A stretch of 51,339 nucleotides of DNA, filler included, from Jimgerdemannia flammicorona (Eukaryota), in NCBI GenBank assembly GCA_003990765.1. It is 2 parts of 2 records of this genome, joined end to end, with 100 filler letters (N's around TTAATTAATTAA, not from the genome) between each part and the next. Parts side by side here need not be neighbours in the genome. Positions count along the whole stretch, not along the records: positions 25,721 to 51,339 come from RBNJ01000813.1; 1 more part is not named here. One strand, 5' to 3'. Made by a program: the position numbers and the translations under genes. Positions 3,511 through 45,614 of this stretch are shown here, in pieces (positions within the stretch are counted from its first letter, which is position 1; each line of letters opens with the position of its first letter). The notes under the pieces were generated by a model, which was not told the origin of the DNA, did not search any database, and was given only the letters and a program-made list of their open reading frames with translations.

Positions 3511-4212
3511 ATGCCTGCTATCCACTACCAAACTGTCCACCATAGCCAGCCCCTCCTAAGCCAGGTTGACTGTCTCTTTGGATATATCTTAGTTGCTATC
3601 TGAGAAAGGGACTACCACTCTGAGGCTCTTAACCTCTCTAGTCCAGACCTAGGATAGTATGTCCTTGACTACCATAAACTCATCGAAAGGACCTACCTTA
3701 CTACCAGCCACCTAGAGATCTGGTATGAATATGAAATTGGCCATCAACTCCTCTAACATACAAAGGACCTACCCACTGACCAGATCTCAGACTGGATCCA
3801 CCTAGATAGGCATGAGCAAAGACTTGCCAAGAAGGTCTATCAAATTATATACCATGCACTCTTTGCAATCCCCAATCTCAACTATGTCTAACTGAAGGAT
3901 TTCCAGAACCTCTCCTTCCTCAAGATTGATGTGCTAGAGATCAAGGTAGCCCAAGAAGCCAACTTCTGGATTATCCTCAAGTCTACTGACATTGAGCTCT
4001 ACTGGAGCCCCCTTCTGAATAATAATCCAGACCAATGGCTCTAAGGCCTCTCTAATCTCTTTGAAGGACCACCTATCTAAATAGATATCCCAGGCATAAG
4101 GATCAAGAATTCTACTTGGATGGTCTCAACTGTATCAGATAGAGAACCCCTACACCAGTACCCATCCCAATATAAGAACCATTTGCAGACCTCATTGACT
4201 TTTCTATCCTAG
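3511..4212 (+). pseudogene. Decayed accessory ORF downstream of chromoviral pol
   Basis: ATG at 3511 opens one frame for ~230 codons, interrupted only by TGA/TAG/TAA that revert to CGA/CAG/CAA. Contains YEIGHQL..DWIHL..RLAKKVYQII..AIPNLNYV*LKDFQNLS. Confidence 0.65.
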
Positions 4213-5132: not shown

Positions 5133-5140
5133 ACTAATTC

Positions 5141-14509: not shown

Positions 14510-14645
14510 TGGGGAACGGGGGTTTGGTTTGGTGTGCTCGGGTTTGGAGAGGGAGGGAGCCATTGCGCTTGGATTTTATTTTTCTTTCTTTTTCTTGGTG
14601 TTGGTGTTCAGGCTGTATACTTATGTACGTATACCACCACGGCTT

Positions 14646-14670
14646 TCCTTTCTTCCTTCCTTCCTTCCTT

Positions 14671-14728
<58 letters not shown>
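14646..14728. repeat. (CCTT)n plus long poly(T) tract
   Basis: Directly visible simple repeat downstream of the 11793-14509 gene. Confidence 0.95.
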
Positions 14729-14731
<3 letters not shown>

Positions 14732-15183
14732 CTTTCGTTGTATATATTTTTTTTATGTTTCTTACAATGAAGTTTATGGCGAGGCCTAGTTGCGGTTGAA
14801 TTGTTCCGAAGCGGCATGCTTCTTTGAGATTGTCTGTTGCAGTTTATAGGAGGTTGTGACAACGAAAACAATGATACTCTATCTTCGAAATTCACGCCCA
14901 TGATGATGGCATACCCAAACCCCTTCCACGAACCCTCCACCATCCTTACCAACCTCCTTGGTACCATTCACCATGAGTGCTGAGGTGATTAGGCCAGGGC
15001 GAGACCTGCGAACTTCCGGATCCAGCTCGTATCACCTCAGGGCGATGACGGTTTCGAGGTAGCTGGTAGCTGGTGCGCACGGACCTTTTCATGCAGTCTG
15101 TCGCACAAACCCCAGAAAGGAAAGTCACAGAAAATGGTCCCAACCCGCCCACTTCCTCCCCCCACACAAACCCTCCGCGGCCC

Positions 15184-21800: not shown

Positions 21801-24800
21801 CTAGGGTCTACTGAAGTGAGGCTGGTAAGGTGACTAGAAGACAGAGGAGGAAGAGGGTGAGTTGGGCTTCTGCTAGACTGACTAGGCTTCTGAAAGATTA
21901 GACAGATCTGGTGGCCCTGGAGGGAGGAGAGGACTGGAGATTAATGCAGGCAAAGATAGAGGTTGGAGAGTTACAATAGGTATTGCAAAAAGAGGAGGGG
22001 GACATTGGTGCAGAGTTTGGTAGTATAGTTATGTTGGCAGGGGCTAGAGGAAGGGGAAAGGCCCTCTAAGTATCTCATAAGAGCTCTTCAGATGAGGAGA
22101 GTAAAGTAGAGGTGGGAGAGGGTACTAGATTCTAATAGTCTGTTAGTGTATAGTATACAAGATATTCTTGGATTGTTAAAGGAGAGATGGAGTGGTTATG
22201 GAGTGAGAAGGAGGGTGGGGCTGATGCTGCCACTATTGACCATGCTTTGGAGGATTGGTACCCACTATAAGCAGAAGGACTGGGCAGCTTAGTGATACTG
22301 ATACAGAAGGAGGAGATCTGCCAGGTTCTTGCTACAACTATACTAGGCATGGCACCAGAGGAGAATAGTCTGCCCTGGGACTTTTGGAAGAAGATAGTGG
22401 GAGTCTCTGAAGTACTGGGAGAGCTGATGACACTTTGTAACTTGATACTACAGTCAGAGAGCTAGGTGGAAGAGCAGGATTCAGGGCTGGTAGTACTGCT
22501 TTATAAGAATAAGGACAAGAGAGAGGACTGGAAGAACTGGTGGCTGATCATACTTCTGGATATAGACAGAAAGTTGGTTACTAAGGTGGTGGTTGCAAGA
22601 CTGTAGAAGGTGGCCCAGTAAGTCTTGGGTGTGAAGCAGTGGGGCTTTGCAGGAGGCCAGCTTATTAGAGATGACATGGTCTGAGTATATGGAGTTATTA
22701 AAGGAGTATGAGCCTGTGGACTGGATGGGTGACTGGTTTTTCTGGATTAGGAGAAGGCATATAACTGGGTTTGACAGATCTGATTAGTGAAGATATTGAA
22801 TAGGATTGGGATATCTCATCAGTTCTAGTTGGTAATAGTCAGCCTACTGGAAGAGAGTAGAGCTGTGCTCATATACAATAGATATAGAGGAGTGGCATTT
22901 CCCCTGGAAAGGGGTATTCCCCAGGGGGACCCACTGTCTCCCATTCTGTATGCTCTTTCACTAAAGCCTTTGATAGATAGGATTTGGTGAAAGATAGTCA
23001 GGCTCTCAGTTTTCAGGATTAGGTAGAAAGTTGGAGCCTTTGCAGATAATATAGTGGTCAGTCTGGGATCAATTGCAGATGTCAAGGAGCTCAAAGAGAC
23101 AGTGAAGTAGTATGAGGTGTACTCTGAGGCTAAACTCAATTAACATAAGTGTGAAATGATAGTGTTGGGTAATGGCCTAGTGGGAGGGGATATCATTGAA
23201 ACAATTGTCTCTACTAGAGAGGCAGTGTAGTACTTGGGTATCTATCTGTCAGTATATGGGTCAGTTCTACTAAGACCTTGGTGGGAGCAGAGAATTGTGA
23301 TCTGAGGGGAGGCCCTGCAGAGTTGAGGAGGACACCACTTGTCTCTGGCAGGGTGTATTTCAATTTTGAACATTTACTGACTGCCAAAGTTGTGATATTT
23401 GACTTATCACTTAGACTTCTTAGCCTGAGTGGTGAAGAGACTGTTGAAACTGGCCAAGGGGTTGATCTGGACTGAGAGAAGGAGTTAGATCAGCTGAGAG
23501 GTCTTGTCTTTATCAGTGGCTAGAGGGGATCTCAAGCTGGTTGATTTTCTGAAGAGACTGTACTATCTGAGAGCATGGTAACTAAAGAGAGCAGTAGAGC
23601 TGAGAGGGGATAGCTGGGTTCCCCTGATGCAGAAGGTCTGAGAGATGAGGTCTTCACCAAAGACTCTATAGGAGATTTACTATCCTTGATTAGACTTCAG
23701 AACAATGAGCATATGTGGTATAAAGGCTTCTGGTGGAGGATAGCAGATGGGGTATACTATATTTGAATTCACTAATAAGAAAATGAAGGAGAGATGCCTT
23801 GGGACCCAGAAATATAGAGATGGGACCAAGTATTGTTGGAGGGCATCCCCCTAATTTATTTTAATATTAGCAATGAGGTTGAGTACCAGAGAGAGCTAGG
23901 ACAGAATCTATGGCCAAGCAGATAGTAGTTGGCAGGTATTGGAGAGGAGTGGGACTAGAATGGGGTCTGGACCTGAAGTGCTGAGGTAAAGCAGTGGCTA
24001 CTGCCAAAGTACTAGATAGTCTGGTAGCATATACTGTAGAGGAATATCATACTCAACTTCTGCTTGGGCCATCTTATAGAAGAGAAAGTTTTTTTTTTTT
24101 TATAGTCACTTGGACTCTGCCATTTATTACCAATCTATACATAATTATACAGCATCTCCTCTCCTATCTGATTCCCATAGGGGAGCCCCTCCCTACAACA
24201 TCCTGAATAAAGGCCATCTTCTCACCCACTACCCCCACCCTTCCCCTACTCTACTTATAAATCTTCTCCACTAAGTAGTACCTTTGACCACTCTGCACCC
24301 CCCAACCAAGCCACCAGCCTATCAAGGTGTCTTCCATAAGACTATACCACCACAGCAACTGGTTCCCCAAGTCAAGTCTCCTTCTATCTTCAAAAACAAA
24401 TAGCCAGTGACTGGCCAACCCCACTCAAATTGCCAAAACCCAACCTAAGGTAAGCCACTCCTTACCCACCCCCTCCACCAGTCTATTCCTCAGATCTTCC
24501 CACCAACCCTGCATGCCACCACTCTGATACACTACTCCCAAGCAGTCTCCAATAGCTTGCCAGAAGTCGTTAAGTATCTTATACTCCTCTAGCCAATGTT
24601 CAGGCATCTGTATATATCTCTCTTCCTGCCCTACATTGTAGTACTCCTTACAGTCAAAGCAACCCCCCTCAATAAAGTAATCTGTGTAGAAGTTGAGCAT
24701 CACATTTCTCCTCAACAAGCACCACCAGACCACCCAGTACTTTGATGGCAGAAGAGGAAAGCTTTGACTGTAAGGAGTACTATAATATAGGATAGAAAGA

Positions 24801-25620: not shown

Positions 25621-25720
25621 NNNNNNNNNNNNNNNNNNNNNNNNNNNNNNNNNNNNNNNNNNNNTTAATTAATTAANNNNNNNNNNNNNNNNNNNNNNNN
25701 NNNNNNNNNNNNNNNNNNNN
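25621..25720. other. Artificial contig/scaffold spacer (44 N + TTAATTAATTAA + 44 N)
   Basis: Exactly 100 nt, symmetric; the 12-mer contains stops in all six frames. Confidence 0.95.
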
Positions 25721-25980
25721 TATATATCAAAAAAAAAAAAAGTCTATATATTGAGAAGGGTCAAAATAGTACCAATGGACAATTTAACTTAAAATAGTTA
25801 TATTAATGTCCATAATTATTTAAATATAATAAAACACATACTATTCAAAAGTTTAAAGGCTATTTTATTAATATTTAAAATTTTGGTTAAATAGAATTTA
25901 GATTAGAAGTATAATATAATTAAAATATTAATAATAACCAAACATTGGTATACTTTTAACTGTCACTATATTAAGAGATA

Positions 25981-26589
25981 CTATTAGGAGAATATAATGA
26001 TACAAATTGCACAGTACAAGAAGATATAACTGGTGGAAGCTTGGAAGTTCAAGTGAATAAGATGTTTCAGAGATGAATTATCTATTTGAGAGGAAGTTGT
26101 AACAGTTGATCCAAATTAGGAACATAAATCAAAAGAATAGATATTTGATCATAGTATCTGAATCTGATTTCCAAATATAGTATAGTCTTATAAATAATAG
26201 TTATTTTACAAATATTAAAGTTTTGACAAATGTTAAGTTTTTACAAATGTCAAGATTTCACAGATATTAAATCTTGATGATTATTAAAGACTTAACAGAT
26301 ATTAAGAATTAATACTTATGAAAAGTGACTTACAGGAAATATAGTCATAACTTAGCCACCTTATAGCTAGCAAACTTGTATAAATATCTCTAGTATCTAG
26401 AGTGAATAAACCTTAGATTGAAATAGTTCAAAGTAAAGAGAAAGTAAGAGAACTAATAAGTCTGTGGGCAGATATACTTCAAACTCACCCACTCATACAT
26501 CTTGAAAACTCTGTAGAATTAAAGAAGATTAAGTTTTCAAGATACAGAAATCTAACATATTTATACAGTTATATGTCTACTATATTACA
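25981..26589 (+). mobile_element. 3' end relic of the dUTPase-Gypsy family: accessory ORF tail, PPT and 3' LTR (26098-26589)
   Basis: IQIAQYKK..EAWKF matches the accessory ORF end at 29867-29940 (minus). PPT gagaggaagt is followed by TGTAAC...TATTACA, with the U5 region similar to the 469-bp LTRs. Confidence 0.8.
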
Positions 26590-27441
26590 CTATATAAATT
26601 ATACTTTTTTACTTATTTTTTTACTTTAAAGTTAATAAGTTTCAATTTATAGATATTTATATATTTAAAAGATTTTTTTATAAAATTTTAAATAAGTATA
26701 AGTTCTATTAAATTTAAAACTATTGATATTACTTCTTAAAGATCTTTAAAGATATAATTATAATATTTTTTTATAACTATTTTACTCTTTTCTAATATAT
26801 CTTAATAAAGTTATATTTATAATAAAATTTTAAATAAAAAATAATATTTTAATTATCTTCTATAATCTTTTTTAATAAATATTTCTAAGTTATAAAATAA
26901 ACTATAACTTTAAAATTTATTAAATATAGTATCTCAATTATATAAAGTTTTTATAAATATTTTTCTTAAAGTTCTCTTTTTATTAATATTTATTTTATAT
27001 CTTTAGTCTATTCTCTTAGCTTATTAGATTAATTATTAGAAAACATTATTATTTATTTTATATTATTAAAAAAAAGTATCTCTTAATAGTATATATTTCT
27101 TTTTTACTAAAATTAAAATTTATATCATTTATCTATAATATATTTTTTAATAAACATTACTATAATTAATATAATATATAGTATGAAATAGAAACAGAAA
27201 ATAGACATTTGATCATAGTATCTGAATCTGATTTCCTAATTTATTATAGTATAGAAATTACCTTTACTATAGATATTATATTACAAACTTCAGATAGAAT
27301 TTTATATAAGATTCTATCTGAGATATAGATGGAATTCTATTTGGAATTTCACATGAAATAACTTATTACTTAGTCTTATATTTAGTAATAGAATTAGTGC
27401 ACAAATCTGTATAAATAATTTAGTATTTTAGAGTGAATAAA

Positions 27442-27445
<4 letters not shown>

Positions 27446-28060: not shown

Positions 28061-28279
28061 GAGTGAATAAACCTCAGTCAGTTTAGCTCAGTTACTTCTC
28101 CTCTCTCTTTATATGAATTTTGGAATCTACTGTACTTCTAAGATTATGTATCCACTATATTATAACTTAGTACCTATTGACTAATAATTCAAGATAAATT
28201 CTTACAAAATAAAACAACTGCCACTGCCTGATTTTGAAGATATATAGATTACTGTACAGACTATTATATATAATATTTA

Positions 28280-28927: not shown

Positions 28928-29360
28928 AGACTACTATATAGATATAGATGAAATTCTATTTGGAATTTCATATGAAATAACTTATTACTTAGCCTCATAT
29001 TTAGTAACAGAATTAGTATACAAATCTGTATAAATAACTCAGTATTTTAGAGTAAATAAACCTCAGTCAGTTCAGCTCAGTTAAAAAAAATCTTCTTTAT
29101 ATACTCTTCTTCATCTCTTTATATGAATTTCAGAATCTACTTTACTTCTAAGGTTATACATCTACTATATTATATTAAATAAGTTATTAATATTTATAAA
29201 GTATTATAATTTTTATTAAAATATATAATATTTTAAGCTTTTATTATTATATTATCTATATAATATAATAGTTGATCTGAATTAGAAATAATAATCAAGA
29301 GATAGATATTTGATTATAGTATCTAAATCTGATTTCTGATATAGTATATATAATATATAG

Positions 29361-29829
29361 TGTAATGTAGCAGATACTTACTCTTGAAAGTATGTCAGAT
29401 TTCTGTATCTTAAAAACTTGACTGTTCTGACTCTTGCAGAGTCTCTTGAAGTTGCAGGGGAGGGTGGGTGAGTTTGAAGTGTATCTGCCTGCAGGCTTAC
29501 TTAGTTCCTTTGCTATCTCTTTGCTTTGAACTATTTTGATCTGAGGTTTATTCACTCAAAGATACTGGGTTATTTATACAAGTTTTGCTAGCTATGAGGT
29601 GATTACTGGGTTACGTGGCTAAGTTATGAGTCATTTAATACTTTGTGAAATGTTTCGCCAGTTGCGAAATGCTATACTATATTGGAGAGCTCGATCTTGC
29701 ACTTTGCAAAATATTTAGCAAGTTGTGAAATCGAGAACTGTTAACTATGTGGCTATACTGCTTTGGGACTGGGTACGATCAAGTATCTATTTCCTATTTC
29801 CTTCTTCCAAATATGGCTATACCATCACA
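29361..29829 (-). repeat. 3' LTR (469 bp)
   Basis: Direct repeat of 35601-36069 (~25 mismatches by manual count, no indels), preceded on the minus strand by PPT aggaggaagt. Confidence 0.96.
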
Positions 29830-29866
29830 ACTTCCTCCTAAATAGATGATCTCGTCCCTAAAGCAT

Positions 29867-30326
29867 CTATTCAAACTCCCAAGCTTCAATGGTCTGTATG
29901 GTCTTGTATTGTGCGATTTGTTGTATCACTGTTTCCCAATGGTGTTGCCTGACTCAGTCAAAGTCTGAGGGAGTCACTCCTCATAGGTGGGCTAGTGCTG
30001 ATTCATCCTCTTGGAATAGCTTGTGGATTCTTTTGGCAATGGTGATCTAGGAATAGGAGAGCTGGCATTCTGCGATCCAATTTTCTTTGGTCATTTCTGG
30101 GTCTTGGTTGAGTACTTGGCTGAGTTTGAAGTACTCTTGGAATTCATTTCAATGCTGATAGGCCTTGAAGTGTGAGATCCAAGAGATGAGTCTGCATGAT
30201 ACTTTAGATACTGTCATAAGACTCCTCTATGATCAGAGGCTCAGTGGTGCACCATTGTCTCTCGATGGCTCTTTGGGCAGCACTAGTGATCTTGAGTGCC
30301 ATCACAGTACTTTTGTTACTGGCCAT
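29867..30326 (-). pseudogene. Decayed accessory ORF between integrase and 3' LTR
   Basis: ATG at 30326; one apparent frameshift; stops revert to CGA/CAG. Reads QEYFKLSQVL..NWIAECQLS..TIAKRIHKLF..ALAHL*GVTPSDFD..WETVIQQIAQYK..EAWEFE*. Confidence 0.7.
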
Positions 30327-33024
30327 GATATTTCTTGAGTCAGTTTCAATGAATGGTGGTGGGAATTATTGTGCCTGAGGGTTTTCATAGCCAAAAGGTG
30401 GTTCCTTTTATATCTTACATGAGGTAAGGTCCTTTCCACTTGGGCTCCAGTTTTTGTGACCATGAAGCTTCAACCATATTCTGATACACCAGGACTTTGT
30501 CTCCTATCTTGATAATCTCTAAGGGTTTGTGGGTCTTTTCCGCATTCCTCTGTTGTAGTGTCTGCACCTTAGTTATGTAATCCTCAGCCTTCTTTCTGAT
30601 TTGGTGTAGTCTCCATATTTCCATGTCCATATGTTTCCATACAGCATCTCCATTGGATGACAAGGTTCCCTGAGAACATTCTTCTCTGAATAGTATTTCT
30701 CGAGGGGTAAAGTGAGTGCTTTGTGATCAGATATCCCAGAGAGCAGATAATGCTATTGGTAGATAGTGATCCCAGTTCTCATAGCTATCACAGATCTTGG
30801 CAATAATGTTCTTGAGGGTTTTGTTGGTCCTTTCTACTTGTCCATTTTCTTGAGGGTGATATGCTGTGGTCCAAATATGCTAGATCTTGTACTTTTTGTA
30901 GAGAACTTCAAAGAACTGGTTCACAAATTTGGTTCCTCTATCTGTAGTTACTTGTGTTGGGGTCTTGAACCGGCAGATGATTTCCTTGTAGAAGAAATCA
31001 GCGATTGACTGTGCATTGGCTTCTATAAGGGGTCTCGCTTCTATCCATTTTGTAAAGAGGTCTACGATGATGATGATGTATCAGTTGCCAGTCAAAGTCA
31101 AGGGTAGGGGGCCGATTATATCCATTACAATGTGGGTGAATGGTACTGGTTCTATGTGTGCTGATCCTGGGGCTTGATTTTGTTGATCTTGTTTCTGTTT
31201 CTGGCATTTGTCACAGGTCTTGATGAATTGTCTGATATCTTCCTCTATCCCTGACCACCATATTGTTCTCCTTGCCTTGTCATATGTATTCATTCCTCCT
31301 AGATGGCCAAGTTCGTGTACTGATTTCATTGCTTGCTCCTTTTTGTGCTCTGGTATGACTAGTAGTTTTCCTCTCTTCAGTATTTCTCCATCAGTTTCAA
31401 ATTGTTTCCATGTTCTGTTGATAATCATTTGTATCCATTCTTCCAGATGTTGGGGCATCTTTCGCTGTTCCAGATATGTGATAATTCCATAGTAGAGCTC
31501 CTTATTCATGGCGATTTTGTAGGGGTGGGGTCCTTCGGGGTATCCATGAGAGGGCATCTGCATTGGCATTGGTTCTTCCAGAGCGATGTACAATGGTTAC
31601 ATCATAAGCTTGCAACTTCATTATCCATCTGACATAGATCCCTTTAGGTTGTCCAGTTGTCAGTAGCCAGGTGAGAGCTGAGTAGTCCGTTTGGATAGTG
31701 AAGTGTCTTCCAGCCAAGTAGTAGTGGAACTTTTCTATGGCCCAGATGACTGCGAGGCATTCTAACTTGTAGGATTCGTATTCTTTTTCAGCTCCTCAGG
31801 TTCCATGGCTGAGGTATGCGATGACATACTCCACTTTATCTTTCTTTTGAGCTAGGACTGCTCCTAGTCCTTGTGCACTTGCATCAGTCTGTAGGATGAA
31901 TTCTTGAGTCCAGTCAGGTCTTCTGAGGATGGGTGCCTGGGTCAGTCTGACCTTGAGTTCATCAAATGCTTTTTGTTGTCTGCCAGTCTACTGGAACTTG
32001 GTATCCTTCTTATTAATTCGTAGATTGGTCCTGCAATATTAGAAAATCCTCTAATAAATCTGCGATAATAGGAGGCGAGTCCCATGAAGGCTTGGGCTTC
32101 CATAACAGTGGTGGGTCTTGGATATGCTGCCACTGCTTGTATCTTGAGGGGGTCTGTGTGTATTCCATCTTGGTTGATGATGTGGCCAAGATAGGAGATC
32201 TCGATTTCTACAAACTTGCACTTCTTGGGTTTGATGTAAAGGCCATGTTGTCTTAGTCTCTCCATTATCTGCTGTATGTGCTGCAGATGTTCCTCAGGTG
32301 TCTTGCTGTAGATGATTACATCATAGACATAGACCATCATCCAACTTCCCATGTCATAGTGGAAGATTTTGTTCATCATTCGCTGGAAGCTTGCTGGTGC
32401 ATTGCACATCCCAAATGGCATTCGTAGGTAGATGTAAGTTCTGTCTGGAGTAATGAAAGCTGACTTTTCACTTGCCATGTCTGTGAGTCCGATTTGGTGG
32501 AATCCTGAGTATAAGTCCAAGGTGCTGTAGTACTGTGCTTCATCTCCCAGTGTTATGAGGATGTCATTGATGAGGGGCAGTGGTTGGCGATCCTTCTTCA
32601 TAACTATGTTGAGTTTTCTGTAGTCAACACAGAGTCTTGGGGCGAATTCTCCAGGCTTGCTGCCTTTTTTTGGGGCCAGTACAATAGGTGAGGACCAGGG
32701 GCTGCTTGCTTCTTTAATGATGCCAGCTTCTTCCATCTGCTTGATTTCTTCTCTGAGCCATTCTCGGTAGGCTGGTGGGACAGGTCTTACCTTCTGATAA
32801 ATTGGTTCAGTGTCTCCAGTATCTACTTCGTGATAGTAGTGTGGGGTCTTTCCTTTGATATCCTTGAAATCTGTAGCAAGGATATCTTCGAATTCGTGGA
32901 GTATTTTCTTGAGTTCTTTCTTGAGTGAAAATTCATTTCTGATGGTGTAGCTGTGCTTGCTTGTGTTTTCCTCCTTCTTATGCTCAAGTTCAGTGATCTT
33001 GGTGTTGGCAAATACTCCTCTTCC

Positions 33025-33440
33025 TATAGATCCAAATCCTTTCTTTCCTCTTCTTATTTCCTCCAGCTTCTTAACTTCTATGATTTTTGGTTGTAGGATT
33101 GGAAAGATCAACATTTGCGCCAATCAGTCCTTCTTTTTGACTGGAAATGGGATTGTAGGATTGTGATTCCTAGCAATGAGTAGAATTTCTCCAGTGTAGT
33201 CTGAATCGATGACTCCTCCTTTGATTGTAATTTTGCTTCTAGCCAGACTGCTTCTTGTCTTGAGAATTCTGACATGATCCTTTGGGATAGTCATCTCCAG
33301 TCCAGTTGCAAGTAGGGTAGTTGTCTGGGGTTCCAGTACAGTCTCCTCTACTGTAGCGATGTCCATTCCGGCTGCATTTTCTGACTTGTATTCTGGCAAG
33401 ACTGCATCAGGGTGGATCTTTTGAATCTTGATCTTGATTT
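33025..33440 (-). pseudogene. dut: dUTPase domain within Gypsy pol
   Basis: All five trimeric dUTPase motifs in order: AGMDI, TRSSLA, GVIDSDYTGE, D*LAQML (CGA>TGA), RGKKGFGS. Confidence 0.95.
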
Positions 33441-35580
33441 CTCCTTCATCATCACTGTCCTCCAGGAGAGCTGGTGGTTCATCATCTTCCTCCTTCTCTT
33501 CTTCCCTGATCTGTTTTTCGAGAGCTTTCTGCCTTCCTTCCTGGTGAATCTTCCTGATTCTGATAGTGCACTGGTAGCAATCATTGACGTGCTCCATGCA
33601 GTACATCTTGATCCCGTGAGGACAGACTCCTTGTGGGGCATAACCTTCTGTGATCTTCTTACACCATTCTTCTTCACTCATCCATCTGACTTTCTTCTTC
33701 TTTGGAGTAGTTACCATATAAGCTTCCTCTTTCTCGCTCTCTTCTTCCTCCATATCAGGCAGGACTCCTTTGTTGACATTGATGGGAATTCATCCTGGTA
33801 GGTGATCTGCATCTTCTGGGCATTGAGATTAATTACTGCCTTGGCTTTGTGAAGCCATTGATTGCCAATGAGGATGTCATAGTTGGTGGCATTGGTTACA
33901 ATTACATCTACTGGGATGGTTGCTCCTCCAATCTTGATGGGAATGTCTCAGATCTTTCCCAGAGGTGTGGCTCTTGTGCCATCAGCTGTGACGAACACCA
34001 GCTTAGTTACTTCTTCTACATCCCAACCCAGGTGGTCTGCTGCCTTCTTGCTGAGGAGACATCCTCCTACTCCCATATCAATGATGGTCTTGAAGATTCT
34101 ATCTTTGATTTGGCATGTTGCATATGCAGAGGTTTTGCGATTGTCCTCACTTTCTTCTCCTGAGTTCTCTTGAGCATTATTGGCCTTGGTTATCTTCCAT
34201 CCCTGTTCCTTAGTTGTTTCGGCAAGTCCAAACCTCATTTGCTGTCTGAATGTTGGGATTTCTGTAAGCTGACCAAAGGTTGCATTGACCTTTTATTGAC
34301 TGAGGTCCTTGAAGATATCATACTTGAAGGTCTTGGTCTTGTGAAGCTTCTTCTCTTTTTCTCCTTCACTGGCTAGAGTGGTTCCTCAGATAATATCTTG
34401 AACTGCTTGCTCCAGCTCTGTATCTTGGTCCATCTCTTTGGCTTGGCTTTCTGTGGCAGTTTCCATCTGCTTTTCCACTGGGTTCTTCTTGGGTCTTCCT
34501 GGTGGTCTCTTGTAGGGCTCTTTGCGAGCATCCTTCTTGGTGGTCTGAGCAGGATAGGCCTTCCATTCTTCTTTGTTGGAATCTCCAATCTCCTCGAAGG
34601 TAATTGTATTAGCCTGCTCCTTATTTCATATAGCATTGCTTGGTTGAGCCTTGCGCTTGGTTTCACTCATGCATTCATAGGAGTAGTGGCCTTCTTCTCC
34701 ACAAGTATAGCAGGTGCCTTTCTTCTTGTCTGAGATGGCGGTGAACTTCTGGACAGGGTGGCGGTCTCTTCCTCAAATTTCCTTTACCATGTCTCCCAGG
34801 TGGGCAGTCATTTCAGCAAACCTTTTGATGAGTTCCTCCATAGGGTCACTGTTCTTTTGCTGCTCTATAGCTTTTGGCTGTATGTGTTTCAATTGATCAT
34901 TGTGGTAGAGATCACACTGGTTGTCTTAGGTGCCTCGATTCTGACTCCTGTGACCCTTTCCATTGTATGGTCTTGTGGATGTCTGGCTATCCAGTATCGC
35001 TGAGCATAGGTAACCTTCTGTGGCAGATCCAGAATCACTGGTAATGAGCGGATGGCCATGGCTATTTCTGGGTGAACTCCTTTCATAAAGGTTGCCTCAA
35101 CTACTTGATCTCGGATAGCAGCAGCATAATCTGCAAGAATTATCTGATATCGAATTCTGGTATAGAATGTGTTTGGATCCTCGCTCATTCCTTAGCATAT
35201 TGTATTGAGCTGATCCTTCAGGGCTTGCTTGATCTCATCTGTATAATATGTATTTCAGAGCCAGGTCTTCTGTGCTGTCAGTATAGCATCAGTATCATTT
35301 CCTGCATGGGTTGCAGCTGTGAATGCTGCTCTGGCAGGGCCTTGTAGGCTGAAGAGCATGAGGGCTACTTGCTGTGCTGCTGTCAGGGTTCTTACAGTAG
35401 CATACTACTTGAAATCATCAATGAAGGTGATGATTGATTCGTCTGAGGTGTACATATCCATAGAATACTGGTGGTCTTATATCCATCTTGTCTGGGTATT
35501 GGGGCTTGGTTTATATGGTTGTTCAGGTGGTGGCAGTTGTTCGTTGTTCAGCTTGAAAGTGAGGGATTCGTCTTGAATCA

Positions 35581-35597
35581 CCAGCCAATGGGCACCA
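35581..35597 (-). promoter_or_regulatory. Primer-binding site TGGTGCCCATTGGCTGG
   Basis: Starts with TGG 3 nt inside the 5' LTR end; decayed equivalents at ~28166 and ~36430. Priming tRNA not assigned. Confidence 0.75.
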
Positions 35598-35600
35598 AGT

Positions 35601-36069
35601 TGTAATGTAGTGGATGCTTACTCTTGAAAGTATGTCAGATTTCTGTATCTTGAAAACTTGACTGTTCTGACTCTCACAGAGTCTCTTGAAGTTGCAGGGG
35701 AGGGTGGTTGAGTTTGAAGTGTATCTGTCTGCAGGCTTACTTAGTTCCTTTGCTATCTCTTTACTTTGAACTATTTTGATCTGAGGTTTATTCACTTGAA
35801 GATACTGGGTTATTTATACAAGTTTTGCTAGCTATGAGGTGATTACTGGATTATGTGGCTAAGTTATGAGTCATTTAACACTTTGTGAAATGTTTCGCCA
35901 GTTGCGAAATGCTATACTATATTGGGGAGCTCGATCTTGCACTTTGCGAAATATTTAGCAAGTTGTGAAATCGAGGACTGTTAACTATGTGGCTATACTG
36001 CTTTAGGACTGAGTGTGATCAAGTATCTATTCCCTATTTCCTTCTTCTGAATATGGCTATACTATCACA
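35601..36069 (-). repeat. 5' LTR (469 bp)
   Basis: Direct repeat of 29361-29829, followed by PBS on the minus strand. Confidence 0.96.
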
Positions 36070-39000
36070 ATAGTTTATCAGTTCTTGATCTCTTAGTTAT
36101 ATGATTTGCACAATTGTATAAAACTCACAATTATATAGATTATATAGATATATAGATATCTCAACTATATAAAATAACTCATAGGAAAAAAAGTCCAACT
36201 TAGTTACTATATAGCTAGTAAACGTATATAAATATTTCTAGTAACTAGAGTAAACAAACCTCATATCAAAATAGTTTAAGTAAAGAGATAAGAAACTAGT
36301 AAGCCTATAGATAAATATACTTTAAACTCACCTATTTCTATATCTGAGAACTCTAAGAAGTTAAAAAATATCAAATATTCAAGATAAAGAAATTTATCAT
36401 ACTTTTGCTAATATATCTACTATGTTATAACTTAGTGTTTATTGGTTAATAATTTAAGATAAATCTCTCACTTTTAAGCTAAATAATGAACAACTACTAC
36501 TACTCAAATATACACTCAAATTGAATCAAGATATCTAGATAAAATAGATATAAGACTACTAGTATTTTATAGATATACCTCTAATAAATCAATCATCACT
36601 TTCTTTGAGTAATATGTTGCTATGAGAACTTTATCAGTATAACAACAAGTAGCTCTAATGCTATTCATTCTATGAGAATCAGCAAGAACTATATTTATAA
36701 CTATAGATTATACTAAAAATAATGATATTGTAATATTAGTAGCATAGAAAGCCTAGTTGTAAGTTACTTACTATATAGACAAAATTAAGCAAGCTCTGAA
36801 GAACTAACTCAACACCATCTACTAAAGAATGAATGAAGATCTAAATACCTTCTATACTTAAATCTACTATTAGATAATTTTGGCTGATTATGCTAATACT
36901 ATTAGAAATTAAGTAGCCAAAGTAATCTTCATGAAAGAAATTTACTTAGAGATAGTTATAGCAATCTGATCAATACTAATAGTCTTAAACTTAATACAGA
37001 GGGTGACTTACATATACTCAGTAATATTAAATAGCCAGACACTCTCAAGACTATATAATAGAGAGAGTTACTGAAATTAGAATTAAAGTACTCAAGATGA
37101 TCAGTATAATTTTTATAACTATAATCAATTGAAATATATCTCAACTAAAGACTATATAGCAGTAGAGGAACAGTGATCCTAGAGGAACTTACTAAGAAGT
37201 TACTGAAATAACTGCTTATCTAGAAGATATAGTAAAAGAAATTAGAAAAAGAGATTATTATCTAGTTCAGAAGTTTGCTACCACTACAGACAAGAAGAGG
37301 AGAATTTGCTATACTTATGGAAAAGAAGGTCACTACTCCTATGAATGTATGAGTGGGACCAAGTATAAGACCCAGTCAAGTAATGCTACTAGAAACTATG
37401 AATAGATCAATATCATCACCTTTGAAAAGATTAGAGATTCAGAGGAAGAAGAAGAATGAGAAGCTTATTTAGCCCTCACCTCTAAGAAAGATATCTACCA
37501 GAAACCCTATAAGAGACCACTAGGAGAACTCCAAAAAAAAAGTAGTAGAATAGCCTATAGAAGAATAAACAGAAATATTTATAAAAATTGAAACCACAGT
37601 TGAAGAAATGAATCAAGATATGAAATACAAATAAGCAGTTAAAGATATTATTTAAGACAATACTTCTGCTAGAAAAGAAGAGAAGGAGAAGAAGTTATAA
37701 AAGAGCAAAACTTTCAAATATGATATATTCAAGAATCTCAGCTAGTAAAAAGTCAATACAATCTTTGGACAGTTAGCAGAAATCCCTATCTTCAGACAAT
37801 AAATGAGACTGAAACTTACTGAAATAGTTAAGGATCAAGAGTAGAAGATAGTTAAGGCTAACAATATATAGGAGAATTCAGGTAAAGAAAGTAAAGAAGA
37901 TAACTACAAGATATCTACCTATGCTATCTATCAGATTGAGGACAGAATCTTTGAGGTCATTATTGATATAGAAGCAAAAGAATGTCTCTTTAGCAAAAAA
38001 GCTATAGAGAAGTTATGAAACTGATATTTATTATAATAGATAGTATAAGAGCTATACCTCTAGAGAAGATTTGAGATATCTCTATTAAGTTCAGAGGAGC
38101 AACTATTTCAGTAGACATGATTGTTACAAATACTACTAACTATAACATTCTCATTGACAACCAGTGGCTTCACAAGGCTAAGGCTATAATCAATATAAAC
38201 TCCTAGAAGCTACAGATTGTCTACTAAGGACAAAAGATATAAATTCTCATTAATGTCAATAAAGGAGTACTTTCTGAAATAAAGAAAGAAAACAGTAAAC
38301 AAGAAAAAGTCTATATAATAATTACTCAGAAGAAGAGGAAGAAGGTCAGATAGATTAGTGAAGAATATTAGTATAAGAAGATTACTGAAAAATATGTCTC
38401 ATAAGGAGTATATCCTTATAGAATTTGAATATACTATATGAAGTATATAGATAAATACTATCAATACATTGCTAAGATCTATAAGATTCATTAAAATGAG
38501 AAGAAAAGAAGACAGAAGTAGCAAGAAAAGGAAGACCAGAAGAATGAACCACTAGCCCTCCTAGAGGATAGTGTTGATGAAGAAGAAATCAAGATCAAAA
38601 TTTAGAGAATTTATCCTGATGCAGTCCTGCCAGAATACAAGTCAGAAAATGCAGTCAGAATAAATATTATCATTGTTGAGAAGATAATTCTTGAATCTCA
38701 GATAACTACTCTACTTGCAACTAGTCTAGAGATAACTATTTCCAAGGATTATATTGCAATACTCAAGACAAGAAGTGGTCTAACTAAGAGTAAAATTTCA
38801 ATTAAAGAAAGCATTATTAATTTTGATTATATTAGAGAAATCTTACTTATTACCAGAAACTACAATTTTATAATTCTGTTTATAGTTAAAAAAAAAGACT
38901 AACTTATATAAATATAAATCTTCCCAGTATTATAACTCAAGATTTTAGAAGTAAAAAAGCTAGAGAAAATAGAAAGAGGAAGAAAAGAATTCAGATTCAC

Positions 39001-40288
39001 AGGAAGAGAAGTTTTTATCAGTACTAAGATTGCCAAATTAAACCATAAGAAGGAGGAAATTTTAGATAAGTATAGCTATATTATTAGAAATAAATTTTTA
39101 TTCAAAAAGGAACTTAAGAAGCTATTATATAAATATGAAGATGTTTTTGTTATCAATTTTAAGGATAATAAAAAAAAGATACTATACTACTATTATGATA
39201 TAGATATAAGAGATACTAAGCCAATCTACTAAAGAATAAGATCAATTTTACCAGTATATTATAAATGGCTCAGAGAGATCAAGCAGATGGAAGAAGCTAA
39301 TATCATTAAGAAAACTATTAGTCCTTAGTCCTTACCAATCATACTAGTCTTAAAGAAAGAAAACAAGTTAGGAGAATTTACTCCAAGACTCTATACTAAC
39401 TACAAAAAGCTCAATGAAGTTATTAAGAAAGATTGCCAACTACTGCCACTCATCAGTAACATCCTGGTAATATTAGAAGATAAAGTACAAAACTACACTA
39501 TCTTGAATTTATACTCAGAATTCTATCAAATTAGCCTTACTAAGAAAACTAGTAAAAAGTCAGCCTTTATTACTCTAGATAGAATCTATGTCTATTTGTG
39601 AATATTATTTGAAATGTGTAATACTCCAGTAAGTTTCTAGAGAAAAATAAACAAGATCTTCTGAGAAGATATAGGAAAATAGATAATGGTCTATATAGAT
39701 AATATAATTATCTTCAGTAAGATAGTTAAGGAATATCTGAACTATATCTATTGAATCTTACAGAAACTGAGAGAGTATGGTCTATTTATCAAGCCAAAGA
39801 AGTATAAGTTTACAGAAATCGAAATCTTCTATCTTAGATATATTATTAACCAGACTAAAATCTATACAGACTCTATTAAGATTTAAGCAGTTATAGCCTA
39901 TCCAAAGCCTACTATAGTTACTGAAGCTCAAATCTTTATGAGACTCATTACTTATTATAGAAATTTATCCAAGGATTCTCCAATATTACAAACTCTATTT
40001 ATAAATTATTCAAGAAAAATATCAAGTTTCAATAGACTGATAGACAGCAATAAGCTTTTGAATATCTTAAGGTCTGTTTGATATAGGTATCTATCTTGAG
40101 AAGATCTGACTGATCTCAAGAGTTCATCTTATAGATAGATATAAGCTCAATCAAACTAGAAGCTATATATTCTTATATAAAAGAAGGATAAGATCAAATA
40201 TATAATTATATATCTCAGTTGAGAAATCTGTGAAAGAGAAAGAGAATATAGATTCTATAAGCTAAAGTATTTTATTATAATAAAACTA
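36070..40288 (+). mobile_element. Older, hypermutated copy of the dUTPase-Gypsy family (5' LTR split into ~29263-29360 and 36070-36429; gag to RNase H)
   Basis: Colinear with the reverse complement of ~35900-31740: knuckle ~37307-37347, protease ~37965, dUTPase ~38590-39003, RT VYIDN ~39690. Truncated in RNase H. Confidence 0.92.
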
Positions 40289-42572
40289 TATAATGACTTT
40301 CTATCTTAAGTTCTGAGTTCTTGAGAAAGTACTGAGTTCTAATTGTCTATTATGGTAGAGTTCAGATATTACTTTTGAATTCTTATACTGGTAAAAGTAT
40401 TATGCTTATATCCTAAGTTCATCAGACTCAGAATTATTAACAAGTTAGATCTGAGAGTTCTATGATAAGAATACTACTTTATTCTTGAGTTCAGAGAAAG
40501 TAGAGCTGAGATTATAATACAGAGTATTTATATATATTTGAATACTATAGCTAAATATAATATACTAGATATATTTATACATAGTTATACTATAATGACT
40601 GCTAGTTGGAATTTCTGTTGAAATTTTTGTTGAAATTTCTGTTAGAATTTCCAGAGACTTATAGATATATGTAATAATTTATTATATCCTTCTCTTCTTT
40701 ACTTGAGTCTACTTGTTAGACTCAGTACTAAACTCTAGATATTTGTCAAATTGAAAAGCAGTATACTGGACTATCTAAAAAACAATTTCACTCTATTATT
40801 CATCACTCAAATTGACAATATTCTCAGAAGATACTCTATAGAGATAGTTGAGGACTTAGAGTTAGATACAGAAAAGAACATAGAGTCTTTTGGTAATAAC
40901 ATAGATATAGTTGTCAATGAAAAGACAGGCTCATTATTTGGCAGCACTGAGAGTAGCTTATTGATAGATGAGATATCCTATCATAGTACTTCTTAAGTTC
41001 TTATTAGTAGCAAAAAGCCTGAAAGAATTAAATTCTTCCAAGATATTATTGGGCTTTATTTGGATCAGAGTTTCTAGAGATTAATATATTAATGGATGAG
41101 AGTTTTGTAGAATTCTATTGATATTCAATTGCTCTAAGAATGATAGTAGTAATCTTATTCTTGACTAATTCTCAGTATCATTACTGAGTACTTATATTAG
41201 AGAGTAGGTTTTATATAGAATTGTTTCAAGATATTTATACTTTTTTTTACTAAGGTTATTTAGAGATATAACTGTCTTTTGAAAATTCTGTCAGAATTTC
41301 TATTATATGATATTTATATTAAATTACTACTTCTTCTGCATTTGGCAAAAGATTGTCTTCTTTTTTCTAAGTAGCATTATACTCAAAGTATCCTTTCTAT
41401 TTCATGAGGTAGTATTTGGGTAGGCTTAGCAGCTTATTCAAATTAGTGATTCTTATGATTTAGAATGTAGTCTACTTTATATTCTAGTTACTAATTAATA
41501 ATTACTAGATCTGGAAGTAGTATGGTTCTCTCTTTAAAGATATTTAGAGTATATAACTGAAGTTGAGATATATAAAACACTGGGTAAATTCTTTCTAGTA
41601 TTATCAGAAGGTCCAACTTATATATAATAGATCTATATTTTTTAAGAATCTAAAATAGTTCAATATAGTGAGGTCTAAGTTTCTTTTTTGGACCTATGTT
41701 ACTCAGAGTTAGGTATTGAGTACTAAGTAATACTTGTTCTCCTTTTTCATGAGTAACTTCTCTTTTATTTTTATTAGTATATAATATTTATATTCTTTAT
41801 ACTTCTATAAGAGCATCTCATACTTACTAAATATTATCTTATATGATATCAGTAATTTCTTATACTACTAGTACTATAGTTTGAGTGGTAACTATAGAAG
41901 TTTGTAGGTATTATCTATAATTTAAGTAGAATGACATCATCTTGGTACTTGCACTTAAGCTGTTATTGTATATAAATTTAGCTAGAGTCAGCTTTTCATC
42001 TCAATCATTTTGCTTATAGCTGCAATAGATATTAAGTATCTACTTCAGAGTTCAATTAGTTCTTTCTGTCTAACTATCTATTTGTAGATGATATACTATA
42101 GACATTTTCAGTTGTACTCTTAAACTTGTGAAGAGTGCTTGCCAAAGTTACTTGTAAACTTTATATCTTAGTCTGAGATGATTACTAATAATAGTCTATG
42201 AAGGCAGAATACATTGTCAATAAATAGCTATGCTTTTCTAGTACTATTACAGTAGTAGTTATTGTAACAAAATGAGCCTGCTTGCTATGAAGATAATAAT
42301 TACATTCCTTTTCTTCTTATTTTTTAGCAACTAGACAATAAAGTCTATTCCAATATAGTCTTAATTTTAGATAAAAATTGATAGCAGTTATAGAGTACTG
42401 ACTAGTGCCTGGTTGCTAGACTTATATCTTTAGCAGATATTGTAGAATATAATGTAATTCTTGATGTTAGATATTATTTTGGGCTAATAGAAGTCTCAGG
42501 CAATATATTTGTATATCTTGTCAAAATCCATATATCTGACTATAGGTATATTATATAGTTCTTACAGAATTC
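40289..42572 (-). mobile_element. Second decayed chromoviral Gypsy 3' half (integrase, chromodomain, accessory ORF, PPT, ~400-bp 3' LTR at ~40289-40687)
   Basis: Minus strand: IGIDFIV, SKQAHFV, ISD*DIKFTSNF, TERTN*TLK (42350-42030); chromodomain YLMK*KGYFEYNAT*KKEDNL (~41410-41350); PPT aaagaagagaagga at ~40688-40701. Confidence 0.8.
40750..41190 (-). pseudogene. Decayed accessory ORF of the second chromovirus (limits approximate)
   Basis: Minus frame YVITKRLYVLFCI*L*VLNYLYRVSSENIVNLSDE**SEIVF*IVQ (~40903-40766) aligns without gaps to the accessory ORF at 29867-30326. Confidence 0.6.
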
Positions 42573-42663
42573 ATAAGTAGATATCAAACATTCAATCCAA
42601 CAATTATCTACAAGCCTGATAAGACACTTGTAGTACCAGATATCTTATCCAGATGCCCAGATC

Positions 42664-45605
42664 TTTTTTTTTTTTTTTTTTTTTTTTAAAGTCCCTTGGA
42701 CTCCGTCTTTATTACCAGTCTATGAATAAGTACACAATATCACCACCCACTATCCGATCCCCATTGGGTGGCCCCACCCCACCTCATCACGTATAAAGAC
42801 CACCCTCTCACCAACAACTCCAACTCTCCCACCACTCTGACCACAGATTTTCACCACCAAGTGGTGCCTCCAACCCCCCTGCAGCCCCCAACCAAGCCAC
42901 CAGCCTGTCAAGATATCCTCCATAAGGAACTGCCACCTTGCTAACTGGCTCCCCAAGCTCGGTTGCTTCTCCTTCTCAAATACAAATAGCCAGTAGCTGG
43001 CCAGCCCAACCCAAATAGCCAATGCCCAGCCTAGAGTAATCCACTCTTCCCCAACCCCTCCTATCAATCGATCCCTCAGGTCCTCCCACCTCCCCCATAC
43101 CATTCCTGCTTCTCATTCCTCTCCCTCTATCTGTCCTGTCTATCTCTGTATCCCATACCATGTTGAAGTCACTCCCCAGACAGTCCAACCCAACCTTGCC
43201 CATGACACTGGCCTCGTTCAAACTGCAAATCCAATCCACCCATTCCCCTCTCTCTGCTGGGCAGTAACATGACCCAACTGTCAATGGGCTCCATCCTGAC
43301 CTCTTCTACACTCCCAACACCAACCAAGACCCCCAATGTTCAATGTCCCCAATGTCCCCCATCCCTTTATGAATGAGGATACCCACCCTCCCCATCCATA
43401 CCACAGCCCCCTCCCATTCTCTAGTCCAATCCTGTAAGTCCACATCCTCCTCATAATGGACATCCTACAGTAAGAAGAGATCCACATCCAGTCCCTTTAG
43501 CCATCCAAAGATGTACTTCCCCCTAGCAGCCCCCCACAACCCATTCAAGTTTATAGAGAATATTCTAGTTATACTGTTCATATTGATTGAATTTGAGATC
43601 CCAGCCTAGTATTCCATACTTATCTCATCCCCAGCCAGATCCAAGCACCTCTCTACTTCCAAGTTCCCCTCTGTGACAGTCTGAGCATCCAATGCCTCCA
43701 AGATTTCCTGACATTCCACCCCATCCACCATCTCCATCTCTGACTGGTAGTCTGTGCAGACTATCCTCCACTTCTCTAATTCCTTCCTTGAGCTCCACAA
43801 GTATACTGCCCAGTCATTCACAATTCCCTTAAGTTCCTCCTCCCTCTGATCATTGACCTGGTATTCAACTGATTCCAAAAAGACTGCCAGGATCTCATTC
43901 CCCACCTTCCTCAGTACCTTCTCTCCCTGAAGGATTTCCTCTCAATGCCTCTCTTCCATAACCCAGAAGTCCTCTCCCCCCAGCTCCTCTGCTGCCACTC
44001 CTTCCAGAGTCTTCCACAGCTACTTCTCATCATCCACCACCTCTGCCACTCTCTGGGTGACCTGACCACCCCCCACCTCTGGGTCCACCAAAGCACTCCT
44101 TCTCACTGACTCATCCCACTCCTCATCTGATATATTCAGTAACTCCTCCTCCCTCTCTGCCCCACCTGGGACACTATACTAAGGGTGTACTCCTTCGCTC
44201 ATTTCTGCATCTGCCTCCACACCACTATCCCTCTTCTCTCTCAGTCCATCCTAAGCCCTGCCCTAGGCCATCCTGCTTCCCCTTGCCCAGGCACTCTCCT
44301 GCAATCCCACTTTTCCATCCCCTGTGCTACTGCCTTCCCCACTACCACCCAGCTTTGCCAGCAACTCCTTCTGGATTCTCCTCCCCTGCATCTTCTCCCA
44401 GGTCACCCGATCCATCCTGAACCTCTTCCCATCAACTACTTCCACCACTGTCCTGGCCTCATGCTCCTTCCAAGCCAATCTCCTCCTCTCAACCGCTTCT
44501 TCCAGTTCCTCCAGAGTCTCAAGCAAGTATTCCTCCTATTCCTGAGTCCCCTTCACCCTTGTGACCTTGTACTCCACCAGTCCCCACTTCAGAGCTGCTG
44601 GCCAGTCTCTTGTCTTCCCCATGTTCTCCTTTCCAGCCAGCCTCACCCAGATGTTAATGTCATCAGTCCAGAGCTCTGTACCCTCCCAGACCTTGAATCT
44701 AACATCCACAATCTCCCCATACTCCTTGATCACCCCCACAATCAACTCTCTAGCCCTCTCTCTCTCAATACTATAGGAAGATCCAATACCATCAACTGCA
44801 CCACTTGGGGGTCCCAGCACATGCACCTGGCCATAGAGACCATGATCCTGCCCACTATCACCCTCTTCACCATGGCAGCCAGCAGTGTATCTTCATCCTC
44901 AAACCCCACCTTGACCCCTTCTTTCCTCTTCAAAAACTTCACTGATGCTACCCCTTTTATCTCCTGCACCACCAGCCCTAAGATCATCCTCATAGTTACT
45001 GCCAAGCCCCTGAAACACATTGTGACAGCAAATTCTGACCTTGATTTCTTGAGTAACAGTGCTGACACCATGCCCATCACCCCATCTGCCAGGTCCCTGG
45101 GACTTGTGCCCACCCCCTGTCCTGAACCAGCAACTGTCATCACATCTGGATTTTTTTCCAGATCCCCAGTCACAGCCCCATCAACAGTCACATCTTCAGC
45201 CCCTACACCCCCCCTTCCTCTACCACCAGACACTCCTCTGGGCACTCCTTCCTGTCCTCCAGCAGTAGCCATTGATACCTTCCCCAGGCCCAGCCAGCCA
45301 TCCAGACCAGAGGCCATTCTCTCCATCTTGACCTTATTAGCAAAGGTCGACCTCTCCCTTCCTCACTGCCTCAGGCTGCCCCTCCCTCTACTACCAGAGC
45401 CCCAGCCAGCCATCGAGGTCCCTGGTATTCCCAAACCATCTCCCCTCCTCCCCACTTGCTGCCAGCCAAAGGCACCACTGTCCCCCTGGTCAGCATGCTC
45501 ACCAGTTCGACCATTGCTGTCTATGTTGATAGTCATCTATCATTAAAAACATTGTAAAAAGTGTTGTCTGAGTCTTGTGTCACCTGAATGTTACTGGTGA
45601 AAGTG
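42664..45605 (-). mobile_element. LINE copy E: 5' end, ORF1, endonuclease N-part fused directly to the 3' end (internal deletion removing RT), poly(A)
   Basis: ORF1 stop at 43606; ORF2 ATG at 43581 (RIFSINLNGL); GSDFN..DR is joined to RWEDLRDRL at ~43095; poly(T) 42664-42687. Confidence 0.88.
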
Positions 45606-45614
45606 CCAGTGCAG

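Follow-up and report, generated by a model that had tools for sequence, protein, structure and literature searches.

Positions 29867-30326 of the stretch of Jimgerdemannia flammicorona DNA analysed here (51,339 nucleotides, assembly GCA_003990765.1, referred to as the window) very probably represent the dead third gene of a Ty3/Gypsy long terminal repeat (LTR) retrotransposon, which is called element A. In its whole, this explanation includes that the gene, an open reading frame (ORF) behind the integrase that we call ORF3, encoded a separate helical binding protein. ORF3 represents an unannotated family that occupies a fixed site in a clade of Gypsy elements with a split-off integrase and is also present in one chromovirus, whereas extra ORFs behind pol are already known as such. 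An earlier note, made from the DNA sequence, had placed an ORF of about 150 codons 3′ of the integrase at 29867-30326, and these coordinates are exact, running from ATG to TAG. It had also quoted three peptide strings as copies of the ORF in three elements, here called A, B and C, and all three are present: at 29909-30043 on the minus strand, at 3820-3915 on the plus strand and at 40766-40900 on the minus strand.

Element A, which contains the first of these strings, is a Ty3/Gypsy LTR retrotransposon on the minus strand. It gives Pfam matches to zf-CCHC, RVP_2, dUTPase (4.3e-16), RVT_1 (2.8e-31), H2C2 and the integrase core (2e-12), and tblastn matches cover 30295-35473. Its dUTPase lies between protease and reverse transcriptase (RT), like that of the PR-dUTPase-RT elements such as PosPlaTy3-5, as far as the relevant passages of the source describe them (Novikova et al., 2010; PMC2864245). 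In two database Gypsy polyproteins, P0171 and P0195, dUTPase is found at the extreme C-terminus after the integrase. The integrase of element A is read in a frame different from that of RT and RNase H. A profile of integrase matches from 31509 to 30340, and the C-terminus, KYHGQ, is followed by TAA at 30318-30316, the same endpoint as in 12 of 12 aligned stand-alone integrases. Since this end matches the ends of the 12 relatives, the region of about 470 bp from the integrase stop to the polypurine tract lies outside the integrase. ORF3 (30326-29867) occupies this region and is followed by the polypurine tract at 29839-29831. Element A consists of three coding units: gag-protease-dUTPase-RT-RNase H, a stand-alone integrase, and ORF3 reaching up to the polypurine tract. 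Both in the region 31509-31942 on the minus strand and in four metagenomic loci (L003, L007, L020 and L029), the integrase forms a separate ORF with the conserved start M-N/D/E-x-x-x-Y, and in the clade of these four loci it abuts or overlaps the RNase H ORF. A degraded chromodomain behind the integrase (motifs ENWI and KRIHKLF) was also considered and was rejected on the integrase ends of the relatives and on a Pfam scan that gave none in three frames of 29700-31200; the same library detects the clear chromodomain of element B (818-2845, plus strand) at 1.2e-11.

ORF3 of element A is decayed. It continues in one frame to 30182 and then in the frame quoted earlier from 30181 to the TAG at 29869-29867, and it is interrupted by five internal stops (30206, 30151, 30049, 29983 and 29956). 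A deletion of 2 bp lies behind 30181, where two extra bases are found in 3 of 3 contigs of a soil-metagenome DNA run, called X1. Restoring the two bases therefore gives 154 codons, with an ATG 8 nt before the integrase stop, and this size falls within the range of about 120-230 codons that is taken for the family. Run X1 contains 378 short contigs that are 80-99% similar to the stretch 29700-31300; thus, with hundreds of contigs resembling its integrase, the family of element A is both plentiful and varied there. Transitions make up most of the differences in that run, and they go either way (A>G 37, G>A 30, T>C 27 and C>T 21).

Relatives of element A in metagenomes have revealed what an intact ORF3 looks like. 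An exhaustive HMMER search with the integrase plus its tail gave 65,520 proteins at E <= 0.001; a separate search among long proteins gave 84 matches, none of which covers the tail. The closest integrases (43-49% identical) are stand-alone proteins of 394-448 aa with a Met start, which end about 5-40 residues past the SH3-like domain. Such integrases are encoded by 80 metagenome loci that were collected, 67 of which include the integrase end. In these 67 loci, there are 32 candidate ORFs of at least 90 aa starting near the integrase stop, 12 of them clustering by BLASTP, and an iterative profile search of 1182 ORFs of the loci together with 13 database proteins converged on 27 members of the ORF3 family. 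A word-index search with the ORF3 profile found 13 proteins only, all metagenomic. The intact ORF3s are mostly 143-153 aa long and are located at the same site after the integrase; counted from the first ATG, the intact ORFs of 19 diverged loci span 119-283 aa. The locus with the integrase closest to that of element A (L001, 54%) has an ORF3 that the profile recognises at E 4e-5 when seven sequences are searched. Where loci are long, the order is gag-protease-(dUTPase)-RT-RNase H, integrase, ORF3, and the family occurs in elements with dUTPase (L003) as well as without it (L007, L020 and L029). A chromodomain-like match was found in one of the 80 loci.

The position of the start codon is also informative. 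In the 19 loci, ORF3 has its first ATG anywhere from -54 to +151 nt relative to the integrase stop, with an ATGA overlap in L001 and L015. In seven of them the ORF3 frame opens solely after the integrase stop, with stops separating the two frames, and therefore ORF3 is a separate gene there. Among the metagenomic elements, integrase identity to L014 of 32-61% is accompanied by ORF3 identity of 17-39%. Two other features of these loci were observed. About 500-700 nt after ORF3 begins another conserved ORF, which bears the motif F.(N/R)FWNWI and had no Pfam match in the two cases tested; it may belong to gag, as an upstream portion reached across the LTR, or be an additional gene. L020, whose contig ends share a 139 nt repeat of 100% identity, has an extra ORF of 284 aa without a Pfam match (7404-8255) between the integrase and its ORF3-family gene (8586-9176).

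Does the decayed copy in the window belong to this family? In a six-frame search of the window, with stop codons read as X, the best match of the ORF3 profile (motifs YYLG and A.R.Y.LF..G) is 30217-29873, at hmmsearch E 0.003, or E 0.016 with a larger profile. Profile Smith-Waterman alignment with strict affine gaps across 2034 segments of the window scores ORF3 of element A at 27.8 against 20.1 for the runner-up; when scoring takes account of repeat-induced point mutation (RIP), the values are 26.7 and 16.0. Comparison with the family by hhalign gives P 0.0044, and BLASTP aligns it with the ORF3 of L001 at E 0.001 in register (RIYKLF/RIHKLF and SGMTQRDL/xGVTPSDF). Because overlapping profile tests agree with the exact position, ORF3 of element A likely belongs to the metagenomic family, which is short of proof. 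Two other scoring schemes were abandoned. An ungapped block scan with position-specific scoring matrices, plain or RIP-aware, had no power and ranked AT-rich low-complexity stretches at the top. Lenient linear-gap Smith-Waterman scores (31.6 for element B and 29.6 for the region at 18.3-18.5 kb) were discarded because traceback showed gap-ridden alignments in other registers.

A homologue has been found in a second element of the window, element C, which is a chromodomain element. Its integrase is 42% identical to that of element B and colinear with it through the chromodomain, and the Pfam Chromo model itself is undetected in C. In an ungapped six-frame scan with the 57 C-terminal residues of ORF3 of element A, the highest score (48) belongs to remnant E, a RIP-mutated copy of the A family, and the next (43) to element C at 40897, followed by 20, 18 and 15. 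Only 2 of 300 shuffled 57-mers reached 43 anywhere in the window; the corresponding counts were 8 of 300 with the entire in-frame part of 104 residues and 29 of 300 with the 45-mer of the earlier note. In another frame, upstream blocks are also shared: KITSAAQRAIERQ of element A pairs with KITTIILRAIEYQ of element C at 41156, and a second block begins at 41033. From one block to the next, the distances are 117 and then 138 nt in A, compared with 123 and then 136 nt in C. When the three-block chain was sought on both strands, C scored 104, E scored 49 and all others scored at most 31, while the maxima from 200 shuffles averaged 29.4 and never exceeded 44. The ORF3s of A and C are identical at 29 of 98 residues. 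The order of features also corresponds: the chromodomain ends at 41322, the ORF extends over about 41189-40727 and a purine tract follows at 40700-40687, starting 9 codons past the end of the third aligned block, just beyond the end of ORF3. As only about 130 nt separate the end of the chromodomain from the predicted ORF3 start (41189), ORF3 is most simply a part of element C. By these alignments, element C carries a colinear ORF3 homologue at the same place as element A; it is linked to the family via A, not via the profile.

The third copy claimed, in element B, has not fared equally well. The region in question starts 965 nt after the pol stop of B, the nearest purine tract is at 4956-4972, and it lies 1224 nt past the SH3 motif against 650 nt in C, so that it is not colinear with ORF3 of C. 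It aligns with the family by hhalign in the same register as A at E 0.12. Against the family profile, hmmsearch gives E 5-13, and strict scoring gives 17.4, which is rank 10 in the window, where the background reaches 20.1. Its ungapped 57-mer score is 15, the sixth, and its chain scores 26, a value that more than half of the null maxima exceed. With C, or the mean of both A and C, as the query, it does not enter the best six. In pairwise Smith-Waterman comparison, 152 of 1000 shuffles score at least as high against A, and 162 of 1000 against C. Region B is thus, by sequence comparison, indistinguishable from chance, and the ORF is shared by two elements, A and C, not by three. Of the alignment and the common position that had been proposed across three elements, the part that concerns A and C has stood, with ORF3 lying between the end of pol and the purine tract in both, and the part that concerns B has not. 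Nor are three lineages involved, since B and C represent one chromoviral lineage, as their integrases indicate. The core of the claim, that a non-chromoviral dUTPase element and a chromodomain element share the ORF, is borne out by the scan, the chain and the identity.

The protein encoded by ORF3 appears to be foldable. AlphaFold2 modelling from a 20-sequence alignment of the family predicts an all-helical structure of eight helices with a mean predicted local distance difference test score (pLDDT) of 88.2 and a predicted template modelling score (pTM) of 0.82. The model has an exposed loop with a conserved P-P-Y or P-Y motif. Conservation is otherwise sparse: one Leu is invariant, and Gly, Tyr and Gly are nearly so. 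All 20 family proteins have a negative grand average of hydropathy (GRAVY; -0.16 to -1.00), and the model is a soluble helical bundle lacking an env-like membrane signature, as judged from GRAVY with no dedicated transmembrane predictor run. None of 19 ORF3s reaches the Pfam threshold (best E 0.017), a sequence profile search of PDB gives E 0.76 at best, and the ESM Atlas gives no usable match. Fold searches with the full model have likewise returned no convincing match, with Foldseek at E 0.57 against PDB and E 0.12 against BFVD. Among 48,161 chains compared by VIA-align, the best Z is 5.7, below the caution line of 8-13 that the tool sets for helical proteins; MIT domains at Z 4.3-5.1 stand among many unrelated helical proteins, all below that line. 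For the C-terminal half alone (pLDDT 81.9), VIA-align reaches at most Z 5.3 and brings no helix-turn-helix family to the fore, and the best Foldseek E is 0.72. On the basis of the model, the ORF3 family is a foldable one without annotation, Pfam model or structural relative. In this respect the earlier note was right on several counts, having proposed a small helical protein that is not env-like and belongs to no recognised family.

A possible mode of action can be outlined as follows. ORF3 would be made as a protein of its own rather than as a tail of the integrase, from its own AUG at or near the integrase stop; the AUG 8 nt before this stop in element A and the ATGA overlap in two relatives fit either termination-reinitiation or a subgenomic RNA. 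The product may be a non-enzymatic, soluble eight-helix bundle that acts by binding a partner, as few residues are invariant and there is no catalytic signature, which suggests a binding protein rather than an enzyme. Candidate partners are the integrase or the particle of the element itself and factors of the host. ORF3 would evolve faster than the integrase, and its faster divergence in the metagenomic elements fits a protein facing a changing partner. As for its distribution, the best integrase-core block between A and C is 30% identical over 46 aa, and since the ORF3s are also about 30% identical despite heavy mutation, the module seems to have moved between lineages: it was probably passed between the A and C lineages by recombination. 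A further and only tentative reading, which we regard as rather unlikely, sees in ORF3 a mobile accessory module that Gypsy lineages of soil fungi exchange through recombination, in this case between a dUTPase element and a chromovirus. It would act in the manner of the small accessory proteins of complex retroviruses, as a fast-evolving helical adaptor that would tie a host factor to the replication complex or disarm a host defence. Equally tentative examples of what such an adaptor might engage are a ubiquitin ligase, via the exposed P-P-Y loop, or a component of silencing.

Several points weigh against the explanation given here. The match between ORF3 of element A and the family spans only about 45 residues in one region, and the three statistics for it, all close to 1e-3, depend on one another. 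No profile match is obtained with the N-terminal half of either ORF3, that of A giving hhalign E 0.57 and that of C 0.46. When the tail was compared with all 80 loci by tblastx and blastn, nothing fell below E 0.12, and ORF3 of C alone gives 0.23 by hhalign and no match by hmmsearch against the metagenomic profile. The LTR and polypurine tract of element C are read from one copy, and the reading of run X1 covers 40 of its 124 differences. The argument for exchange relies on short blocks in RIP-mutated DNA and on a comparison of identities without a tree. The isoelectric points of the family extend from 4.8 to 9.7, and therefore a general nucleic-acid binder, which the earlier note had put forward as a speculative role beside that of an anti-silencing factor, is not favoured.

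With these points in mind, other readings have to be considered. If 29867-30326 were 3′ untranslated sequence that codes for nothing, the ORF and the sequences resembling it would have arisen by chance in AT-rich, RIP-mutated DNA. The spurious lenient-gap matches in AT-rich regions (18.3-18.5 kb and B) and the non-significant tblastx of the tail would be expected from that, but it would leave unexplained the intact ORFs at the same site in 19 diverged loci, a family that folds confidently, the top rank of the window copy under strict gaps, and the three colinear blocks of A and C, whose chain far exceeds the null. Remnant E, RIP-mutated itself, also keeps the C-terminal peptide (IQIAQYKKI.LVEAWKFK), with the stop placed as in A. 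A chance origin is therefore extremely improbable and already largely refuted. ORF3 might instead prolong the integrase at its C-terminus, for example as a degraded chromodomain or other targeting domain, and be joined to it by readthrough or frameshifting. C-terminal modules are common on Gypsy integrases, and the open frame of ORF3 already begins ahead of the integrase stop in 12 of the 19 loci, so that fusion by frameshift is possible there. No Chromo or other Pfam domain is found in any frame of the tail at E <= 1, however, the closest integrases stop shortly after the SH3-like domain, the frames are separated by stops in the remaining seven loci, the fold is all-helical, and element C has a chromodomain plus ORF3. 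This makes an extension very unlikely, if slightly less so than chance, and a separate gene remains the preferred reading.

Two further readings concern the number of elements that carry ORF3. All of A, B and C may carry it, B being too mutated to score. The hhalign alignment sets YEYEIGHQLL and LAKKVYQII of B on the motifs YYLG and A.R.Y.LF with the 32-residue spacing seen in A, the strict alignment ends at node 146 in B and 149 in A, and B is related to C. The rank, chain and shuffle results above speak against B, as do its place outside the top six, its lack of colinearity with ORF3 of C and the lack of a purine tract nearby; a third copy is thus improbable. Conversely, ORF3 of C could come from another element, one whose 3′ end with ORF3 was brought next to the chromodomain of C by deletion or recombination. 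Element C is truncated, heavily mutated and located amid nested insertions (element D ends at 40264), and there is no second C LTR to define the element. However, the gap of about 130 nt between chromodomain and ORF3 leaves no room for an LTR, and 40265-40686 has no similarity to the LTR of A, though the same search found the RIP-mutated D and E. We consider such a chimera unlikely and retain ORF3 as a gene of A and C.

Small, fast-evolving, mostly helical and non-enzymatic proteins that are encoded 3′ of pol and act by binding partners are known from complex retroviruses, namely Vpr, Vpx, Vif and Rev. The likeness of ORF3 to them is one of role only, as the sequence and fold searches with ORF3 have found no similarity. 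The chromodomain of chromovirus integrases (PF00385), present in element B, resembles ORF3 in its location, as it takes up the stretch from the integrase core to the polypurine tract. ORF3 differs from it in being separate and all-helical and in giving no Chromo match, and the two coexist in element C.

Among LTR retrotransposons, those of bdelloid rotifers offer the closest parallel cited here: in the parts of the study considered, ORF3s after pol, encoding an env-like protein, a GDSL esterase or a DEDDy exonuclease, are common across lineages (Rodriguez, Kenefick and Arkhipova, 2017; PMC5408684). As in the elements described here, an extra ORF behind pol is common to unrelated lineages, and dUTPase is present in three of four rotifer lineages. 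Unlike the bdelloid ORF3s, as these parts describe them, the present ORF3 is helical, is about 150 aa long, has no enzymatic or membrane signature and belongs to fungal or soil elements. For fungal Gypsy elements, the legend of Figure 3 in Novikova et al. (2010; PMC2864245) marks an "add. ORF" of unknown function. Thus, the premise of the earlier note that these elements carry only gag-pol was too strong. The main-text passages of that paper contain neither a sequence nor a description of this ORF. In the portion of Muszewska et al. (2011; PMC3248453) considered, only additional domains in complex elements are mentioned. A description of the ORF3 family was not found in searches of full-text papers, with Repbase, subscription papers and the supplements of PMC2864245 outside the scope.

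The rest of the window contains further repeats; the coordinates of the features discussed are collected in the table. Element D (36174-40264, plus strand) is a RIP-mutated copy of the A family, 68% identical to element A coordinates 204-4308 and cut off inside RNase H at 40264; in going from A to D, 758 sites change by C>T or G>A, and the opposite direction accounts for 166. Remnant E is located just after two runs of 44 N (25621-25664 and 25677-25720). Smaller LTR-like pieces are found at 27346-27445, 28124-28231 and 28971-29066. The stretches 5000-9500 (minus), 19000-24400 (plus) and 42750-51339 have a GC skew of up to 0.55 either way and recur about 26.8 kb apart with 73-77% identity. Since an ORF at 49190-49687 matches reverse transcriptase (E 1.8e-8), these stretches appear to be copies of a non-LTR retrotransposon; their other long ORFs have no Pfam match. 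A GC-rich island (51-61%) at 10000-17000 lies between repeats; Pfam recognises none of its long ORFs, such as 11787-13625 (612 aa), and its translations are largely of low complexity and rich in R, G and P.

Table. Features of elements A, B and C, of remnant E and of metagenomic relatives (window positions unless a locus is given).
Feature	Position	Strand	Details
ORF3, element A, decayed	29867..30326	-	ATG 30326-30324 to TAG 29869-29867, 460 nt
3′ LTR, element A	29361..29830	-	470 bp, 94.7% identity to 35601-36070
Polypurine tract AGGAGGAAG, element A	29831..29839	-	directly precedes LTR start TGTGATGG
Integrase ORF, element A (H2C2 zinc finger, rve core, SH3-like end)	30316..31509	-	Pfam, profile, alignment
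gag (CCHC), protease, dUTPase, reverse transcriptase, RNase H, element A	31597..35600	-	Pfam and tblastn
5′ LTR, element A	35601..36070	-	paired with 29361-29830
Integrase and chromodomain, element C, RIP-mutated	41322..42690	-	SH3_Tf2-1 3.2e-8; integrase profile 42690-41614
ORF3 homologue, element C, heavily RIP-mutated, frameshifted	40727..41189	-	blocks start at 41156, 41033 and 40897
Candidate polypurine tract AAAGAAGAGAAGGA, element C	40687..40700	-	sole purine run of at least 10 between the chromodomain and 40100
Putative 3′ LTR, element C	40265..40686	-	inferred; abuts the truncation of element D; no second copy in the window
Region B of the earlier note	3820..3915	+	homology unsupported
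Remnant E (last codons of ORF3, polypurine tract, LTR), RIP-mutated copy of the A family	25959..26589	+	65.7% identical to element A coordinates 6107-6710
F.(N/R)FWNWI ORF	L004:3157-3780, L007:6801-7436, L010:2978-3214, L014:2480-3211, L038:3144-3506		

The extra genes of LTR retrotransposons mark steps toward virus-like complexity and often encode the points of contact between element and host. ORF3 accounts for about 470 bp that a repeat library would otherwise list as non-coding "spacer", and it provides both a testable candidate for an accessory factor in fungi and a case for the exchange of modules among retroelement lineages. If the tentative adaptor reading proved true, ORF3 would be the first "Vpr/Vif-like" gene of fungal retrotransposons, with a fold unseen among solved structures.

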